The notes below the pieces were generated by a model. That model was not told the origin of the DNA, did no database searches, and saw only the letters and a list, made by a program, of their open reading frames with translations. Below, piece by piece: positions 1-23,142 of a stretch of 32,000 nucleotides of DNA. Origin of the DNA: Alkalilimnicola ehrlichii MLHE-1. Its GTDB lineage: Bacteria; Pseudomonadota; Gammaproteobacteria; Nitrococcales; Halorhodospiraceae. The translations under genes and the position numbers were made by a program. The stretch lies in NCBI RefSeq assembly GCF_000014785.1, contig NC_008340.1, positions 390,001 through 422,000 of the forward strand, in the 5' to 3' direction. The first letter of the stretch is position 1; each line of letters starts with the position of its first letter.

Positions 1-810
1 CATGATGATGGCGTCCGGGTGAGCCACCGAGAGTTTCTCCTCGGTCAGGCCGTAAAGCTTGAAGTACTCGCCCTCACTGGGCAGCAGGGCGCCGCGCATG
101 CGCTCCCGTTGCAGCCGGAGCATCATCACCACGTCGACATCGCGGAGCCCGGCCTGCATGTCGTGGAACACCCGCACGCCCAGGGTCTCCACATCCCGTG
201 GCAGCAGGGTGCGCGGGGCGATCACCCGGACCTCGCCGGCGCCCAGGCCATTGAGGGCGTGAATCTGGGAGCGGGCCACCCGCGAGTGCAGGATGTCGCC
301 GACAATGGCCACCCGCAGCGGTTCGAAATCGCCCTTGTGCTGGCGGATGGTGAACATGTCCAGCATGGCCTGGGTGGGGTGGGCGTGGCGGCCGTCGCCG
401 GCGTTCAGCACGCTCACCCCGGGCCGGACGTGGCGGGCGATAAACTCGGCGGTGCCGCTGTCGCCGTGGCGCACCACGAAGGCGTCGCACTGCATGGCCT
501 CCAGGTTGCGCAGCATGTCCAGAAGGCTCTCGCCCTTGGACTGGGAGGAGACCGCCACGTCGATGTTGAGCACGTCCGCCGACAGCCGGGTGGCGGCCAA
601 CTCGAAGGTGGTGCGGGTTCGCGTGCTCGGCTCGAAAAACAGGTTGATGACCGTGCGGCCGCGCAGCAGCGGGACCTTCTTGACCGACTTGCCGATGACG
701 CCGGTGAAGCTCTCGGCGGTGTCGAGGATCTGGTTCAGCAGCGGCCGGGGCAGGCCTTCCGTGGTCAGGAAGTGGCGCAACCGGCCCTGGTTGTCCAACT
801 GTGCGTTCAT
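1..810 (-). CDS. pyrB: aspartate carbamoyltransferase catalytic subunit, N-terminal about 270 codons only (gene runs off the left window edge)
   Basis: Absent from the ORF track because it has no stop inside the window. My translation of the minus strand from the ATG at 810-808 gives [20 protein letters not shown]...[19 protein letters not shown]...[12 protein letters not shown]...[13 protein letters not shown]. This carries the STRTR and HPTQ motifs of ATCases. ATGA start/stop overlap with pyrR at 807-810. Confidence 0.9.
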
Positions 811-3255: not shown

Positions 3256-3797
3256 GCTGCCTCGTGGCCATCCCGGCGCGGCGGGCGGCCGAGTTCGCGG
3301 ATCATGGCGCTGGCCATTATACCGTTGACCAGCCCGAAAACGATGGCGGCGGTCATGAAGGGCGGAAAGAGGAGCCAGAGCCCCGGGTGCGGAATGAACA
3401 ACCACCAGGCCGCGGTGAACTGGGCCCCCATGTGGGCCAGGGCGGCCAGCAGACTGTAGCTGACCGCGCTGGCGCCGGGCAGGGTCCGGGCCAGCGCGAG
3501 GCCGCCCAGTGCACCCAGGCCGCCCGCCAGGCTGAGGAAGAAGGTGGGGGAGAGCAGGGTGCCCATCAGGATGCCGCCGGCCAACACCCGCAGCACGGTG
3601 ATCCAGACGGCCACCCGCCAGCCGTAGAGCCAGCACGCGGCCACCGTGATGATGTTGGCCAGCCCCGGTTTGATGCCGGGCAGCGGGCTGGGCAACGCCG
3701 CCTCGGCCACGTGAATCGCCAGGGCCAGGGCGGCCAGGGTGGCGATCCGCAGGTCGTCGCGGTCACTCTTCAGGCGGCGGTAGCGGGGCGCTGTCAT
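3252..3797 (-). CDS. Gx transporter family membrane protein (heptaprenyl diphosphate synthase component I-like fold, PF07456-type)
   Basis: 181-aa polytopic membrane ORF. Family-typical blocks are LPSPLPGIKPGLANIITV, LRVLAGGILMGTLLSPTFFLSLAGGLG and HMGAQF. Confidence 0.75.
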   Translation of the reverse strand: MTAPRYRRLKSDRDDLRIATLAALALAIHVAEAALPSPLPGIKPGLANIITVAACWLYGWRVAVWITVLRVLAGGILMGTLLSPTFFLSLAGGLGALGGLALARTLPGASAVSYSLLAALAHMGAQFTAAWWLFIPHPGLWLLFPPFMTAAIVFGLVNGIMASAMIRELGRPPRRDGHEAA

Positions 3798-5211: not shown

Positions 5212-6152
5212 AGCCGGGTTTCCACCAAGTCCATCAGGCGTGCGGAGATATTGGTCTCGTAAATGGCGTCCAGCTCCCGGACGCAGGTGGGGCTGGTGAC
5301 GTTGATCTCGGTGAGGTAATCACCGATCACATCCAGGCCGACGAAATCCAGCCCGCGCCGGCGCAATTCCGGGGCCACCTGTTCGCAGATCCAGCGGTCG
5401 CGGTCGGTCAGTTCCACCCCGACGCCGCGCCCGCCGGCGGCCAGGTTGCCCCGGGTCTCGCCCTCGCGCGGGATACGGGCCAGCGCCCAGGGCAGCGGCT
5501 CGCCGCCGATCATCAGGATCCGCTTGTCGCCCGCCTCGATCTCCGGCAGGTAGCGCTGGGCCATGATCTGGAGGGTGCCCTCCCGGGTGAGGGTCTCCAG
5601 GATGACACTGGTGTTGGGGTCGCCATCCCGGACCACGAAGATCGAGGCGCCGCCCATGGCATCCAGCGGCTTCAGCACCACATGCTCTTGCTCGGCCATG
5701 AAGGCCCGCAGCTGCCCGGCATCGGCACTGACCAGGGTGGGGGCGCAACACTGCGGGAACTGGGCGGTAAAGAGCTTCTCATTGCAGTCGCGCAGCGCCT
5801 CCGGGCGGTTGATCACCTGGACCCCCGCCAGCTCAGCCAGCTCCAGTACGTGGGTGGCGTAGGCATAGGCGGTGTCCACCGGTGGATCGCTGCGCATGAG
5901 GATGACGTCCAGCGCCTCCAGCGGGCCCCAGGCCGGTTCGCCCAGCTCGAACCAGTCCCGGTTGTCGTCCCGCACCGTCAGTGGCCGGTTTCGGCCCAGG
6001 GGTCGGCCGTCGCGCAGGGCCAGATCGCCGGTCTCCAGATAATGCAGTACCCAGCCGCGGCGCTCGGCCTCCAGCAACAGGGCCAGGGTGGTGTCCTTCC
6101 AGGGTTTGATCGCGTGGATGGGGTCCATGACCACGCCCAGTCGTACGCTCAT
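5208..6152 (-). CDS. gshB: glutathione synthetase (ATP-grasp)
   Basis: 314-aa ORF. Blocks: MDPIHAIKPWKDTTLALLLEAERRG, VLKPLDAMGGASIF, and RILMIGGEP...ARIPREGETRGNLAAGG, typical of prokaryotic GshB. Confidence 0.92.
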   Translation of the reverse strand: MSVRLGVVMDPIHAIKPWKDTTLALLLEAERRGWVLHYLETGDLALRDGRPLGRNRPLTVRDDNRDWFELGEPAWGPLEALDVILMRSDPPVDTAYAYATHVLELAELAGVQVINRPEALRDCNEKLFTAQFPQCCAPTLVSADAGQLRAFMAEQEHVVLKPLDAMGGASIFVVRDGDPNTSVILETLTREGTLQIMAQRYLPEIEAGDKRILMIGGEPLPWALARIPREGETRGNLAAGGRGVGVELTDRDRWICEQVAPELRRRGLDFVGLDVIGDYLTEINVTSPTCVRELDAIYETNISARLMDLVETRL

Positions 6153-6379
6153 GAAGGTTCCTCGGGGCCGGGGCGGTTGCCCGCGTCAAGTGAATACGAT
6201 GGCCGCATGATACCGCGTGTCGGCGCTGAGTATGAGGGGCGGGGCGGCGTCGGCGCCGGTACCCAGTTAGTCGTAAGGTAGTATTCGGTCGGACACCTAT
6301 GGTAAATACCTGGGGGAGGAACTCGTGCCGCTGCCGTCCGGCGGGCAGCGGGATTTCTGCCATCGACGAGGGGGCGCGG

Positions 6380-6784
6380 GTGGAAAGCGAAGCGTCAGAG
6401 CAGGACGTGCAGGGCCTGAAGGTGATGGTCATCGACGACAGCAAGACCATCCGCCGCACGGCCGAGACACTCCTCAAAAAGGAAGGCTGCGAGGTGATCA
6501 CGGCCACCGACGGGTTCGAGGCCCTGGCCAAGGTGGCCGAACATCGGCCGGATATCATCTTCATTGACATCATGATGCCGCGCCTGGACGGCTACCAGAC
6601 CTGCGCGCTGGTCAAGAACAACCCCGCCTTCCGGGCCACGCCCGTGATCATGCTCTCCAGCAAGGACAGCCTGTTCGACCGGGCGCGGGGGCGCATTGTC
6701 GGTTCCGAGCAGTACCTCACCAAGCCGTTTACCCGGGGCGAGCTGCTGGACGCCATTCGCCGCCATATCACGCAGACGGCCTGA
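6380..6784 (+). CDS. pilG: twitching-motility response regulator PilG (CheY-like)
   Basis: Track ORF 6299..6784. The body KVMVIDDSKTIRRTAETLLKKEGCEVITATDGFEALAKV....DIIFIDIMMPRLDGYQTCALVKNNPAF..TPVIMLSSKD.LFD.A.GRIVGS.QYLTKPF is nearly collinear with P. aeruginosa PilG as I remember it. I prefer the in-frame GTG at 6380 (VESEASEQDVQGLKVMVIDD), which is preceded by GAGGGGG. The start could be up to 81 nt further upstream. Confidence 0.88.
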   Translation: MESEASEQDVQGLKVMVIDDSKTIRRTAETLLKKEGCEVITATDGFEALAKVAEHRPDIIFIDIMMPRLDGYQTCALVKNNPAFRATPVIMLSSKDSLFDRARGRIVGSEQYLTKPFTRGELLDAIRRHITQTA

Positions 6785-6827
6785 CACACTCTTTAAGGAC
6801 ATCATCTAAGGACGGGGAGTTCACACC

Positions 6828-7193
6828 ATGGCGCGCATTCTGGTTATCGACGATTCACCCACCGATCTCCACGCCATCCGCTCCATCCTGGAGGGGGAGG
6901 GGCACCAGCTGATTGAGGCCGGTGACGGGGAGCAGGGGCTGGAACAGGCGCGCAGCGCCCATCCCGATCTTATCCTCATGGACATCGTCATGCCCGGCAT
7001 GAACGGCTTCCAGGCCACCCGGCGGCTCAACCGCGACGCCGAGACCGCCTCGATCCCGGTGATCATGGTCAGCAGCAAGGACCAGGCCACCGACCGGATC
7101 TGGGCCAAGCGCCAGGGCGCGGTGGATTACATCGCCAAGCCCGTGGAGCGCGATGAACTGCTCCAGAAGGTACGCGCGGTGTTGGGCGGCTGA
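6828..7193 (+). CDS. pilH: twitching-motility response regulator PilH (CheY-like)
   Basis: 121-aa receiver domain (ILVIDDSPTD, LILMDIVMPGMNGF, VIMVSSK, DYIAKP). GGGGAG Shine-Dalgarno upstream. Positioned between pilG and pilI. Confidence 0.88.
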   Translation: MARILVIDDSPTDLHAIRSILEGEGHQLIEAGDGEQGLEQARSAHPDLILMDIVMPGMNGFQATRRLNRDAETASIPVIMVSSKDQATDRIWAKRQGAVDYIAKPVERDELLQKVRAVLGG

Positions 7194-16291: not shown

Positions 16292-17637
<1,346 letters not shown>

Positions 17638-17686
17638 GGGTATCGTTTTGGGGTTGGCGTGGGTGTGAGTGTGAGATTGTTGTGTC

Positions 17687-17814
17687 GGGGCTTCGTGGGG
17701 GTGTGGGTCGGGGGAGCGGGGGCTTCCGTTACGGATACGCTGCAAGTACGTCCCTGTAGCTCGTAGGCGGCATCCCTGCCGCCTACGATCCGTAACGGAA
17801 GCCCCCGCTCCCCC
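17687..17814 (-). repeat. structured palindromic repeat, copy A (G-run tract 17687-17714; 27-bp arms 17710-17736 and 17788-17814; 51-nt core 17737-17787)
   Basis: Arms GGGGGAGCGGGGGCTTCCGTTACGGAT and ATCCGTAACGGAAGCCCCCGCTCCCCC are perfectly complementary. The core holds an 11-bp hairpin at 17762-17787 with a 4-nt loop, which reads GGGA on the minus strand. The strand given is only relative orientation, defined as the strand on which the loops read GGGA. Confidence 0.9.
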
Positions 17815-17987
17815 TGTCATCCGTTTGGGGCCGGGGTGTCCCCGATGCCGTCTCCTTCGTTAGCCCTACTCCTCTCGGCGCTGGTGATGCGCACGCAGAC
17901 ACGCCGGTGCCCCCAGCTATCTGTTCGCCGCCTTGCATTGGGAGGGGGACACTCAAAGGAATGACACCGGCGCCAATCATGTGTCGT

Positions 17988-18147
17988 GGTCTTCTCCGGG
18001 GCGGGGATAACGGTCGCGGACCGTAAGCGGCAGGGATGCCGCTTACGAGCTACAGGGACGTACTTGCTGCGTGTCCGCGACCGTTATCCCCGCCCCGGAG
18101 AAGACCCCCCTCCGAAGCCCCCGAGAGCCCCAAAGGCCCGAAGGCCC
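17988..18147 (+). repeat. structured palindromic repeat, copy B (34-bp arms 17988-18021 and 18073-18106; 51-nt core 18022-18072; C-run tract 18105-18147)
   Basis: The arms are perfectly complementary. Core CGTAAGCGGCAGGGATGCCGCTTACGAGCTACAGGGACGTACTTGCTGCGT is 48/51 identical to the reverse complement of the copy A core. One of the three differences is a compensated base-pair change in the 11-bp hairpin. Confidence 0.9.
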
Positions 18148-18186
18148 GAAGCCGGCACATGCTCCGAAACCTACCGGGCCCGACAC

Positions 18187-19521
18187 TCAACCAACCAGGG
18201 ACTTGACGAAAACCCGCGACGCCCGATTCTGATCGTAGGCCCTGCGCCGGGCCTCGGGCAGGTCCTCCGGCGCGGCCGGCTGGAACCCCCGCTCCTGGAA
18301 CCAGTGCGCCGTCCGGGTCGTCAGCACGTAAAGCCGGTCCAGCCCTTCCGCCCGGGCGTCGGCCTCCACCTGGGCCAGCAGGGCGTCGCCCCGGCCACCG
18401 CCCCGGTAATCGGGATGCACCGCGAAGCCCGCCAGCTCGCCCGTGGTCGAGCCCGGGATCGGGTAGAGCGCCGAGCAGGCGATAATGCTGCCATCGCGCT
18501 CCACCACAATGAAGTGGTCGATATCCGTCTCCAGCAGATCCCGCGGCCGGCTCACCAGCGTGCCATCCCGCTCCAGCGGCTCCAGCAGGGCCACAATCCC
18601 CGGCACATCCTCCGGCGTGGCGCGGCGCTGGGTCTCAAACCGCTCCGGCGTCACCAGCGTCCCCACCCCGTCGCGGGTAAACAACTCCAACAGCAGGGCC
18701 CCGTCTCGGTGCCGGTCCAGCAGGTGCACCCGATGCACCCCGGAACTGCACGCCCGCAGCGCGCGCTCCAGCAGGCGGCCGGTCTCCTTCGTCAGGCAGC
18801 GCGGCGGCGCGTTCAGCAGGGCCCGGACCTGGCTCAGCGTCATCTCGCCCACCCGCTGGCCCCGGTCATCGCAGACCGACTCGCCCTCCTGCAGAAAGAT
18901 CAGCTTGTCGGCCCGCAACGCCCGCGCCGCCTCCAGCGCCACCTCATCGCCGGCCAGGTTGAACACCTCGCCCGTGCGCGAACAGCCCAGCGGCGAGAGC
19001 AGCACCATATCGCCATCGTCCAGGCGGGCGCGGATGCCCTCGGCATCCACCCGGCGCACCTCACCGGTGTGCTGGTAGTCCACCCCGTCGCGCACCCCCA
19101 GGGGCCGGGCCGTCACCAGATTGCCGGAGGCCAGTCGCAGGCGCGCGCCGGCCATCGGCGAATTGGCCAGGCCCATGGTGAACAGCGCCTCGATCTCCAG
19201 GCGCACCGCGCCCACCGCCTCCTTCACGCAGGCCAGGGCCGCATCGTCGGTGATCCGCAGGCCGTTGACATAGCGCAGCTCGGCGCCGCGCTCGCGCAGG
19301 CGCGCCTCCACCTGCGGCCGGGCCCCGGGCACCAGCACCAGGCGCACACCCAGGCTGGAGAGCAGCGCCAGGTCGTGGATGATGTCGGGGAAGTCGCCGT
19401 CCTGCAGCGCCGCGCCGGAGAAGGCCACCACAAAGGTGCGCCCCCGGTGGGCGTTGATATAGGGCGCGCTGTTGCGGAACCAGCGCACGTAGAGTTCCGG
19501 GTCCAGATCGCTGGTCTTCAT
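18187..19521 (-). CDS. argA: amino-acid N-acetyltransferase (N-acetylglutamate synthase)
   Basis: 444-aa ORF. N-terminal amino-acid-kinase-like domain (FRNSAPYINAHRGRTFVV, LVLVPGARPQ) and C-terminal GNAT domain (ELAGFAVHPDYRGGGRGDALL). Confidence 0.9.
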   Translation of the reverse strand: MKTSDLDPELYVRWFRNSAPYINAHRGRTFVVAFSGAALQDGDFPDIIHDLALLSSLGVRLVLVPGARPQVEARLRERGAELRYVNGLRITDDAALACVKEAVGAVRLEIEALFTMGLANSPMAGARLRLASGNLVTARPLGVRDGVDYQHTGEVRRVDAEGIRARLDDGDMVLLSPLGCSRTGEVFNLAGDEVALEAARALRADKLIFLQEGESVCDDRGQRVGEMTLSQVRALLNAPPRCLTKETGRLLERALRACSSGVHRVHLLDRHRDGALLLELFTRDGVGTLVTPERFETQRRATPEDVPGIVALLEPLERDGTLVSRPRDLLETDIDHFIVVERDGSIIACSALYPIPGSTTGELAGFAVHPDYRGGGRGDALLAQVEADARAEGLDRLYVLTTRTAHWFQERGFQPAAPEDLPEARRRAYDQNRASRVFVKSLVG

Positions 19522-22886: not shown

Positions 22887-23024
22887 GGGTCTGCCGGGGG
22901 CTTCGGGGGGTGCGGGTCGGCCCTTGGGGTGCTTCGGTTGCGGATACGCTGTGAATACATCCCTGTACGCTCGAAGGCCGCATCCCTGCGGCCTACGATC
23001 CGCAACCGAAGCACCCCAAGGGCC
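22887..23024 (-). repeat. structured palindromic repeat, copy C (G-run tract 22887-22916; 27-bp arms 22919-22945 and 22998-23024; 52-nt core 22946-22997)
   Basis: Arms GGCCCTTGGGGTGCTTCGGTTGCGGAT and ATCCGCAACCGAAGCACCCCAAGGGCC are perfectly complementary. Core ACGCTGTGAATACATCCCTGTACGCTCGAAGGCCGCATCCCTGCGGCCTACG aligns with the copy A core. Same orientation as copy A. Confidence 0.9.
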
Positions 23025-23142
23025 TCTCGGCAGGACCGACCCGGATATACCGTAAGCCTGACAGAGCGTGCACCCCGGACTGAGCCCGAAAAACACCCCC
23101 GCACCGGCCGGCTGGTCAGCGCAGCGGGGTCCCGCTAGCAGG

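Follow-up and report, generated by a model that had tools for sequence, protein, structure and literature searches.

The spacer between the argA and bioA genes of Alkalilimnicola ehrlichii MLHE-1 holds two long palindromic hairpins in opposite orientation, and a third copy of the same element lies about 5 kb away, next to rho. They were analysed in a window of 32,000 nucleotides (contig NC_008340.1, positions 390,001 to 422,000 of the forward strand), to which all positions given below without a contig name refer. The best explanation is that the three copies belong to the YPAL/RU-2 family of miniature mobile hairpins, modelled in Rfam as Ysr224, as new and distant members, and we regard this as very probable. 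Judged by comparison of sequences, the non-coding module of 105-119 nt that they represent is the conserved heart of the YPAL/RU-2 mobile elements. What is new is the gammaproteobacterial range of its core, a design of "free arms, fixed tip" and a strand asymmetry intrinsic to the element, to which may be added a strict head-to-head pairing, the carriage of the module by several shells of miniature inverted-repeat transposable elements (MITEs) and a likeness of its loops to binding sites of CsrA.

The initial annotation of this stretch, made from the letters alone, had described the argA-bioA spacer and its two palindromes accurately. The spacer measures 549 nt between the bioA start codon at 17637 (minus strand) and the argA stop codon at 18187, and the identities of both genes are supported by Pfam. 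BioA shows 100% identity to the A. ehrlichii MLHE-1 protein, and the window maps to CP183314.1 (3.26 Mb). Gene calls were made under the GC3>GC1>GC2 rule. All coordinates of the two opposite palindromes, copies A and B, were verified (Table 1). Their arms are perfectly complementary over 27 bp in copy A and 34 bp in copy B and enclose 51 nt in each; after reverse-complementing, the two cores are identical at 48 of 51 positions, one of the three differences being a compensated pair in the 11-bp core hairpin, and CAGGGAYG occurs twice in each core. A supposed strand flip of part of the arm between the copies (CCGTTA/TAACGG) proved trivial, as both words are present in every palindrome. The strand reading GCAGGGAUGC...UACAGGGA, which bears the GGA motifs, is here called canonical; it is the minus strand for copies A and C, which makes them sense to argA, bioA and rho, and the plus strand for copy B, which is antisense to argA and bioA. 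Between the end of copy A and the bioA start codon downstream of it there are 72 nt, and copy B begins 80 nt past the argA stop codon. Copy C, in the same orientation as copy A, is flanked by the 3' ends of two convergent genes, an rlmI-like methyltransferase gene (stop 22823) and rho (stop 23143), and is found on the strand of rho about 118 nt past the rho stop; its arms differ from those of A and B, and its core carries further compensated changes. All three copies (105, 119 and 106 nt for A, B and C) are intergenic within these 32 kb. A 26-nt hairpin pattern matched the window three times and 100 shuffles of it not once, and the fold energies of -91.2 (A), -104.6 (B) and -80.8 (C) kcal/mol correspond to z-scores of -11.6 to -14.3, which together exclude chance. 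A covariance model (R1) built on 46 distinct copies, drawn from the metagenome copies with A and B left out and C included, found exactly these three matches in the window. Copies A (79.4 bits, E about 1e-18) and B (79.3 bits) were absent from its training set, while the 93.4 bits of copy C were obtained with a sequence that was part of the training alignment.

All copies share a common design, a three-way junction. The closing stem, of about 25-35 bp, is free in sequence yet paired, and its last pairs are usually GAC/GUC. Stem P2, preceded by a 5' CGU, consists of 9-11 covarying base pairs with a conserved U mismatch and carries loop 1, C-AGGGAU-G, after which comes CGAGC. A 3-bp helix, GCN/N'GC, encloses the hairpin P3 (UAC/GUA) with loop 2, AGGGAY, and the conserved 3' strand of the core reads YUYRC-N'-GCG(U). 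Both apical loops have the form C-A-N-GGA-N-G. In a 72-column alignment of the 46 distinct copies, 96.2% of the cells were paired, compared with 73.3% in column shuffles and 27-51% when partners were slid, and changes on both sides were found at 16 of the 25 pairs, in agreement with the earlier proposal that selection acts on a structure whose arms vary freely. Peaks of mutual information coincide with the proposed helices. Since the arms were defined through pairing, the structure is supported independently by P2 and by the N-N' pair, which among the matches listed is C-G in 55 cases, G-C in 14, U-A in 9 and A-U in 2, with G opposite A in 26. In the same matches, two positions 2 nucleotides apart covary almost perfectly (U..A 94, C..G 17, 5 exceptions). 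The interpretation of the GGGA cap as a GNRA tetraloop had to be given up, as relatives have UGGA, AGGA or CGGA and the variants include GCAUGGAUGC, CCAAGGAUGG and CACGGAUG; GGA alone is invariant, with N free on both sides. Three expanded elements were also observed (Table 1), in which loop 1 is replaced by extra short hairpins with GGA loops (GGGC-AGGAU-GCCC, GCAC-AGGGAU-GUGC). They carry 4-7 GGA hairpins, and in one of them, L088, a tandem duplication places 6-7 GGA motifs on a single closing stem.

The Yersinia palindromic sequences (YPAL), or RU-2, were reportedly described by De Gregorio et al. in 2006 and by Delihas in 2007. They are MITEs of 167-168 bp found in Yersinia and Erwinia carotovora, with internal inverted repeats and variable target duplications of 3-26 bp that adjoin a dyad symmetry; filled and empty sites have been reported in Yersinia, and the elements are co-transcribed with upstream genes, the stability of whose mRNA they may affect (PMC2229807). 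Most Yersinia species have 37-144 copies per genome, and Y. ruckeri only 2. The published Y. pestis sequence has CGTCCGCGCCAAGGATGGCGCGGCTCGAGCCTACATGGATGTATTTACGGCGT between long imperfect inverted arms (PMC2759123), and it folds with -68.1 kcal/mol on the canonical strand versus -59.4 on the opposite one. Over some 52 nt YPAL and the window copies have the same core, CGUC-stem-CANGGAUG-stem-CGAGC-N-UACANGGAUGUAUUUACGGCGU, closed by long internal inverted repeats; both are intergenic, not AT-rich and present in more than one copy (three in the window), and both form a stable hairpin for which the same strand folds better. R1 gives 44.7 bits (E about 1e-9) to a YPAL-like copy on an IncN plasmid. 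The consensus of Ysr224, also a multi-copy family, corresponds to the module core with Yersinia arms read on the complementary strand, and once reverse-complemented it aligns with the window cores over 53 nt. Ysr224 is, however, modelled on the strand without GGA loops and described as a small RNA (sRNA), not as a mobile repeat: a temperature-responsive multi-copy "sRNA" whose copies are differently expressed and which is among the most often annotated sRNAs. The element had initially been taken as unclassified, a status that a confident match to Rfam or to a published REP or MITE family would end. That label no longer applies, given the homology of the core with the published YPAL/RU-2 MITE and, on the opposite strand, with Ysr224; a family with a homologous core does exist, but the Rfam scores are far below the gathering threshold.

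The module is kept foldable on one strand only. When arm mismatches were scored with equal penalties and unique arms counted, the canonical strand of the matches listed showed 129 G:T/T:G mismatches versus 26 A:C/C:A mismatches (p = 1e-17), so that the GGA-bearing strand tolerates G:U and does not tolerate A:C. Such a strand-asymmetric excess of G:U implies a single-stranded form, as had been suspected from the palindromes. Among the same matches, the ratio of G:U to A:C was 24:3 in copies antisense to co-directional flanking genes and 22:7 in sense copies. The independence of the excess from the direction of the flanking genes indicates that the constraint is the element's own, arising in a transcript or a propagation intermediate, and does not come from host read-through.

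In other genomes the module is clearly mobile. Copies with identical arms are numerous at contig ends within one sample, and their alignment together with the flanks delimits a 167-bp unit with the terminal inverted repeat TAACWTCTCAAWAAGTCCGKGC and target duplications of 9-10 bp (CGGGGTGTCG, GCTCAATCC, TTCACCGGC). The TAACWTCTCAAWAAGTCCGKGC terminal repeat was found again around modules with unrelated arms. A second shell measures 314 bp, has 8-bp duplications and ends in a terminal repeat of 23 bp (CCTGATTATCTCTGAAACTCAGC). It contains two modules head-to-head and occurs twice, on both sides of a ppx gene. A third shell has the outer repeat GCATTATTCATGAACG, and in one element it surrounds a different internal hairpin. 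The view that the element is not a MITE is contradicted by this amplification of identical copies inside terminal-repeat units whose target duplications measure 8-10 bp. Right next to the arms, duplications were no commoner than in shuffled flanks. No transposase gene was seen next to the copies or among the genes of the window, and the genes between spaced pairs comprise ppx, a GrpB-like open reading frame (named from its translation) and hypothetical proteins, again with no transposase. A 170-bp element (L114:2992-3161) has the outer inverted repeat of the module-bearing L012 and L024 elements (GCATTATTCATGGACG / CGTTCATGAATAATGC) around another long internal hairpin, one that lacks the GGA core, an indication that MITE shells can carry exchangeable cargo.

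The arrangement of neighbouring copies is also regular. Among the matches listed, 18 of 19 neighbouring R1 matches at most 500 nt apart were in (-,+) order with their 5' ends facing, and the nineteenth is a single copy split by an insertion, leaving all 18 genuine close pairs head-to-head; pairs more than 1.5 kb apart showed no orientation preference. The A/B pair of the window is head-to-head like the other close pairs, and copy C is a singleton. The module, which encodes nothing, is copied in trans inside MITEs in other genomes, singly or head-to-head, and presumably also in the lineage of A. ehrlichii.

With regard to the size of the family, the core pattern was found at 26 loci in reference genomes, nearly all from Gammaproteobacteria: Tolumonas, Marinimicrobium, Pseudoteredinibacter, metagenome-assembled genomes (MAGs) of Enterobacteriaceae, many other MAGs and one Hyphomicrobiales MAG. 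This pattern demanded N7 after loop 1, where the window copies have N6, so the source genome was missed. The pattern also occurs in at least 120 metagenome stretches, on which the metagenome-derived copy counts rest, and R1 finds 186 copies in the collected genome and metagenome loci, among the matches listed. Viral contigs gave no match to the pattern, and a blastn search with copy B against phage and plasmid collections gave none either. Published work was also searched by the sequence itself, which returned only primer noise, and a literature search found no paper that extends the YPAL/Ysr224 family beyond enterobacteria. The Hyphomicrobiales copy (L019, 922-1000) is complete, scores 77 bits and sits on a contig binned as alphaproteobacterium; it may reflect mis-binning or transfer outside the Gammaproteobacteria. 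A match in a Massilia MAG (L007, 2300-2330) is probably due to chance, because it lacks arms and falls inside a coding region. Individual copies can be rearranged, as at L060:2597-2679, where an 11-nt internal duplication creates a third CAGGGAUG, or interrupted, as at L095:5211-5354, where some 70 nt with a CCAGGGAGG hairpin of their own have been inserted into a copy. Unannotated YPAL-like copies that share about 75% identity with Y. pestis YPAL are present at 3501-3664 of the IncN plasmid NZ_CP058883.1 (L152) and on 18 other plasmid records. These plasmids are conjugative and come from E. coli, Klebsiella and Citrobacter of wastewater; in the one context examined, that of L152, the copy lies near an IS26-flanked block of metabolic genes. 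Conjugative plasmids are a possible route for the horizontal spread of such copies.

Several observations weigh against identifying the window copies as mobile elements of the YPAL/RU-2 family. The Rfam model RF02770 (Ysr224) gives copy B 22.9 bits (minus strand) and copy A 17.5, and relatives 30-33 bits on the opposite strand (best 32.6), for a gathering score of 70; at permissive thresholds Rfam otherwise returned spurious miRNA-hairpin matches and a sub-threshold RsmW. The homology with YPAL is confined to the core of about 52 nt. The arms of the window copies pair perfectly, and arms and flanks are unrelated to YPAL sequence; the copies measure 105-119 nt, compared with 167-168 bp for YPAL (or 130 bp for a variant), and their host, a member of the Ectothiorhodospiraceae with 70% GC, is distant from Yersinia and Pectobacterium. 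The window copies have no clear target duplication or terminal repeat beyond an 18-nt outer repeat that is 83% matched. Likewise, no empty site was found for the A/B pair: in the nearest relatives the gene preceding bioA is metF and not argA, which leaves no empty-site comparison at argA-bioA, and their metF-bioA spacers carry no copy of the module. One of these spacers, in a related MAG (L151:2797-3000), contains another palindromic repeat (CACAGAGGCACAGAGAA ... TTCTCTGTGCCTCTGTG), which encloses a second small palindrome and is unrelated to the module.

The conserved tip may serve as a platform for protein binding. In vitro selection (systematic evolution of ligands by exponential enrichment, SELEX) gave for CsrA the consensus RUACARGGAUGU, with ACA and GGA invariant and GGA in a hairpin loop (PMC4347634). 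Loop 2 with its stem, UACAGGGAUGUA, equals this optimum, with GGA in the hairpin loop, and that of copy A (UACAGGGACGUA) fits it but for the U after GGA, which is replaced by C. The module has at least two GGA hairpin-loop sites with flanks fitting RUACARGGAUGU / CANGGANG, a feature of the Csr/Rsm type, and in copies not forced by the search pattern the loops change only at the N positions and keep GGA (CAUGGAUG, CAAGGAUG, CAGGGAAG, ACAAGGAGGU, CACGGAUG). GGA in short hairpin loops, with two sites spaced for one dimer, is likewise found in Csr/Rsm sponge RNAs (CsrB, RsmY/Z, RsmW) and in CsrA-binding leaders, and the module variants with several GGA hairpins on one closing stem resemble the sponges; Rfam also gave a weak match to RsmW (21.3 bits, E = 0.37). 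The likeness is nevertheless one of motif alone. No Csr/Rsm covariance model was matched significantly, and the module is mobile and multi-copy and has no Gac-type promoter or terminator. If transcribed, the tip would most likely clamp one CsrA/RsmA dimer through the two GGA hairpin loops, about 29 nt apart. Copy A would then give the bioA leader a candidate CsrA site, and copy C the 3' region of rho, whereas from the antisense copy B the argA-bioA transcript would gain only a very stable 34-bp duplex.

We put forward tentatively, and with more doubt than confidence, that the core could be a portable high-affinity docking module for CsrA/RsmA, scattered by MITEs through gammaproteobacterial intergenic regions, which would wire genes into the Csr/Rsm regulon or titrate it. 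A number of results speak against this step. The search pattern behind most copies required the loops, so the invariance of the loops rests on about 25-30 partner copies from BLAST or the covariance model. Among the matches listed, orientation with respect to the flanking genes is unbiased, with 20 sense and 23 antisense copies. No sigma-70 promoter or intrinsic terminator was predicted in the spacer between copies A and B or around them, and the model of Ysr224, the sole transcript reported, represents the strand that has no GGA. A literature search found no link of YPAL or Ysr224 to CsrA, and searches pairing CsrA with MITE or with repetitive extragenic palindromes (REPs), or Alkalilimnicola with repeats or REP-associated tyrosine transposases (RAYTs), returned nothing relevant. 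A tblastn search for csrA in the collected loci gave no match, a result that carries no weight because these loci are short flanks.

An explanation that we consider unlikely is that the element acts as single-stranded DNA, its canonical strand folding, for example at the replication fork, and being read by a structure-specific enzyme, with the GGA loops a motif for recognition of DNA by a protein and the resemblance to CsrA sites a coincidence. Comparable substrates are the ends of IS200/IS605, attC sites and single-strand initiation signals. A strand asymmetry independent of host transcription fits such a substrate, and so would the two identical loops if the protein were dimeric; the near-perfect arms despite wide divergence between lineages look as if foldable masters alone propagate, and the variable YPAL duplications (3-26 bp, next to dyad symmetry) are unusual for DDE transposition (PMC2229807). 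In several lineages, however, the module travels in ordinary MITEs with fixed 8-10 bp duplications, for which no single-stranded hairpin is needed, no associated enzyme gene was found, and this explanation fails to predict an exact match of 11-12 nt to an RNA-protein SELEX consensus or the multiplied GGA hairpins. It also seems improbable that the copies are non-mobile cis-acting RNA elements of the host, serving between argA and bioA to block or insulate transcription, to stabilise a 3' end or to be processed by RNase III. Very stable duplexes of 27-34 perfect base pairs, a preferred position downstream of genes, C-rich and G-poor tails compatible with Rho loading sites and the co-transcription of YPAL, with its possible effect on the stability of the upstream mRNA (PMC2229807), are what one would expect of them. 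The Correia/NEMIS elements of Neisseria and ERIC of enterobacteria, small non-autonomous elements with terminal repeats and target duplications, give transcripts with long hairpins that act on neighbouring mRNAs via RNase III or RNase E (PMC2229807). Conservation in these families extends to the terminal repeats and the entire sequence, and no asymmetric apical core with variable arms or pair of GGA loops has been described. A cis-acting role would account for the arms, but not for the conserved, asymmetric core of 52 nt, its covariation or the asymmetry of antisense copies; no intrinsic terminator is predicted, and multi-copy spread with target duplications shows mobility.

Less likely again is a free-standing sRNA gene with its own promoter and terminator, either a trans-acting sRNA like Ysr224 or a Csr/Rsm-type sponge. 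The Rfam description of Ysr224, a temperature-responsive sRNA with several differently expressed copies, accords with it, as do the GGA hairpins, a hallmark of Csr/Rsm sponges to which the expanded variants are similar. Neither a promoter nor a terminator is predicted around A or B, though, there is no conservation from genome to genome in what precedes the arms, copies numbering tens to hundreds are enclosed by MITE shells, and the Rfam scores for Csr/Rsm families are negligible. The initial annotation had raised a relationship to REPs, BIMEs (bacterial interspersed mosaic elements) and REPINs mobilised by a RAYT (Y1 HUH) transposase, for which the hairpin would be a single-stranded substrate and the head-to-head pairs REPINs; the elements are indeed intergenic palindromes, located among the matches listed mostly in tandem (43) or convergent (17) gene intervals and seldom in divergent ones (5), with opposite-orientation pairs as described for REPs (PMC3733652), one folding strand and a stretch (CTACAGGG) resembling, according to that annotation, the P. 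putida REP. We see hardly any chance of this, given that REPs measure 20-40 nt, not 105-119, keep the stem and vary the spacer where the module has a free stem and a conserved loop region, and carry an unpaired GTAG or CGTC tag, while in the module the reverse-strand GTAG word is not conserved (its N position covaries with N'), the features of the CGTC family (an 8-9 bp stem starting with two A/T pairs, a 4-5 nt loop, a CCA tail) are lacking, the G:U-tolerant strand is opposite to the one that would bear a 5' GTAG, the window has no transposase or RAYT gene, mobility elsewhere proceeds by terminal repeats with 8-10 bp target duplications, and the published REP surveys examined contain neither this motif nor Alkalilimnicola. 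The peptide that a CGTC-1 dimer encodes inside an open reading frame, when back-translated, points to an unrelated repeat with a ATTCCCGC stem.

Table 1. Features of the hairpin modules in the window, and expanded variants on other contigs (strand: canonical strand for the window modules)
Feature	Position	Strand	Remarks
Copy A, hairpin module	17710..17814	-	arms 17710-17736 / 17788-17814, core 17737-17787
Copy A, loop 1	17770..17779	-	GCAGGGAUGC (C-A-N-GGA-N-G); caps stem P2
Copy A, loop 2	17747..17758	-	UACAGGGACGUA; P3 hairpin
Copy A, C-rich 3' tail	17687..17709	-	GACCCACACCCCCACGAAGCCCC on the canonical strand; left arm of doublet outer repeat
Spacer between facing 5' ends of copies A and B	17815..17987		173 nt
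Copy B, hairpin module	17988..18106	+	arms 17988-18021 / 18073-18106, core 18022-18072
Copy B, loop 1	18030..18039	+	GCAGGGAUGC
Copy B, loop 2	18051..18062	+	UACAGGGACGUA
Copy B, C-rich 3' tail	18107..18121	+	CCCCTCCGAAGCCCC; right arm of doublet outer repeat
Copy C, third module	22919..23024	-	106 nt; 27-bp perfect arms, 52-nt core
Copy C, C-rich 3' tail	22897..22918	-	GACCCGCACCCCCCGAAGCCCC
Expanded variant, L068	about 6060-6210	+	
Expanded variant, L100	about 660-800	+	
Expanded variant, L088	about 6770-6990	-	

All three window copies have a C-rich tail 3' of the arm. It reads GACCC[AG]CACCCCC(A)CGAAGCCCC in copies A and C and is shorter in copy B, with the general form ...CCCC(N)CGAAGCCCC on the canonical strand. 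The tails of A and B make up the imperfect outer inverted repeat of the doublet (17687-17704 / 18104-18121, 83% matched over 18 nt). Read as canonical RNA, these tails have much C and little G (skew +0.30 to +0.68), resembling Rho loading sites. The strand opposite them is rich in G runs (GGGG, GGGGG, GGG) at 17640-17730 (+), 22897-22925 (+) and 18104-18160 (-), and might fold into G-quadruplexes. A short stretch, ACCGTAAGC ... CACCCCCGCACCGG, lies 5' of copy C at 23025-23110 (+). R1 gives no match in this stretch, which may be what is left of a decayed head-to-head partner of copy C and of its tail. In Logan contigs of the same strain (SRR32708590), the end of L028 and the start of L149 break within the perfect arms of B and A, and many metagenome matches likewise lie at contig ends. 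One 275-nt contig (L125), a single palindrome with 100-bp arms, is probably an assembly artefact.

YPAL and Ysr224 have so far been treated as a Yersinia-specific repeat or as an sRNA without an assigned function. The argA-bioA locus points to a 52-nt core that is an old module spread across many Gammaproteobacteria, with a structure kept on one strand and carried by several MITE shells. Even if the CsrA idea fails, this provides a useful annotation for a family that is overlooked outside Yersinia by the current Rfam model and that breaks short-read assemblies. Furthermore, the CsrA-like loops lead to a directly testable idea, namely that mobile elements may spread sites for a global post-transcriptional regulator; if this is true, transposition would wire genes into the global Csr/Rsm regulon, or titrate it, and in A. 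ehrlichii the regions concerned would be the bioA leader and the 3' region of rho.

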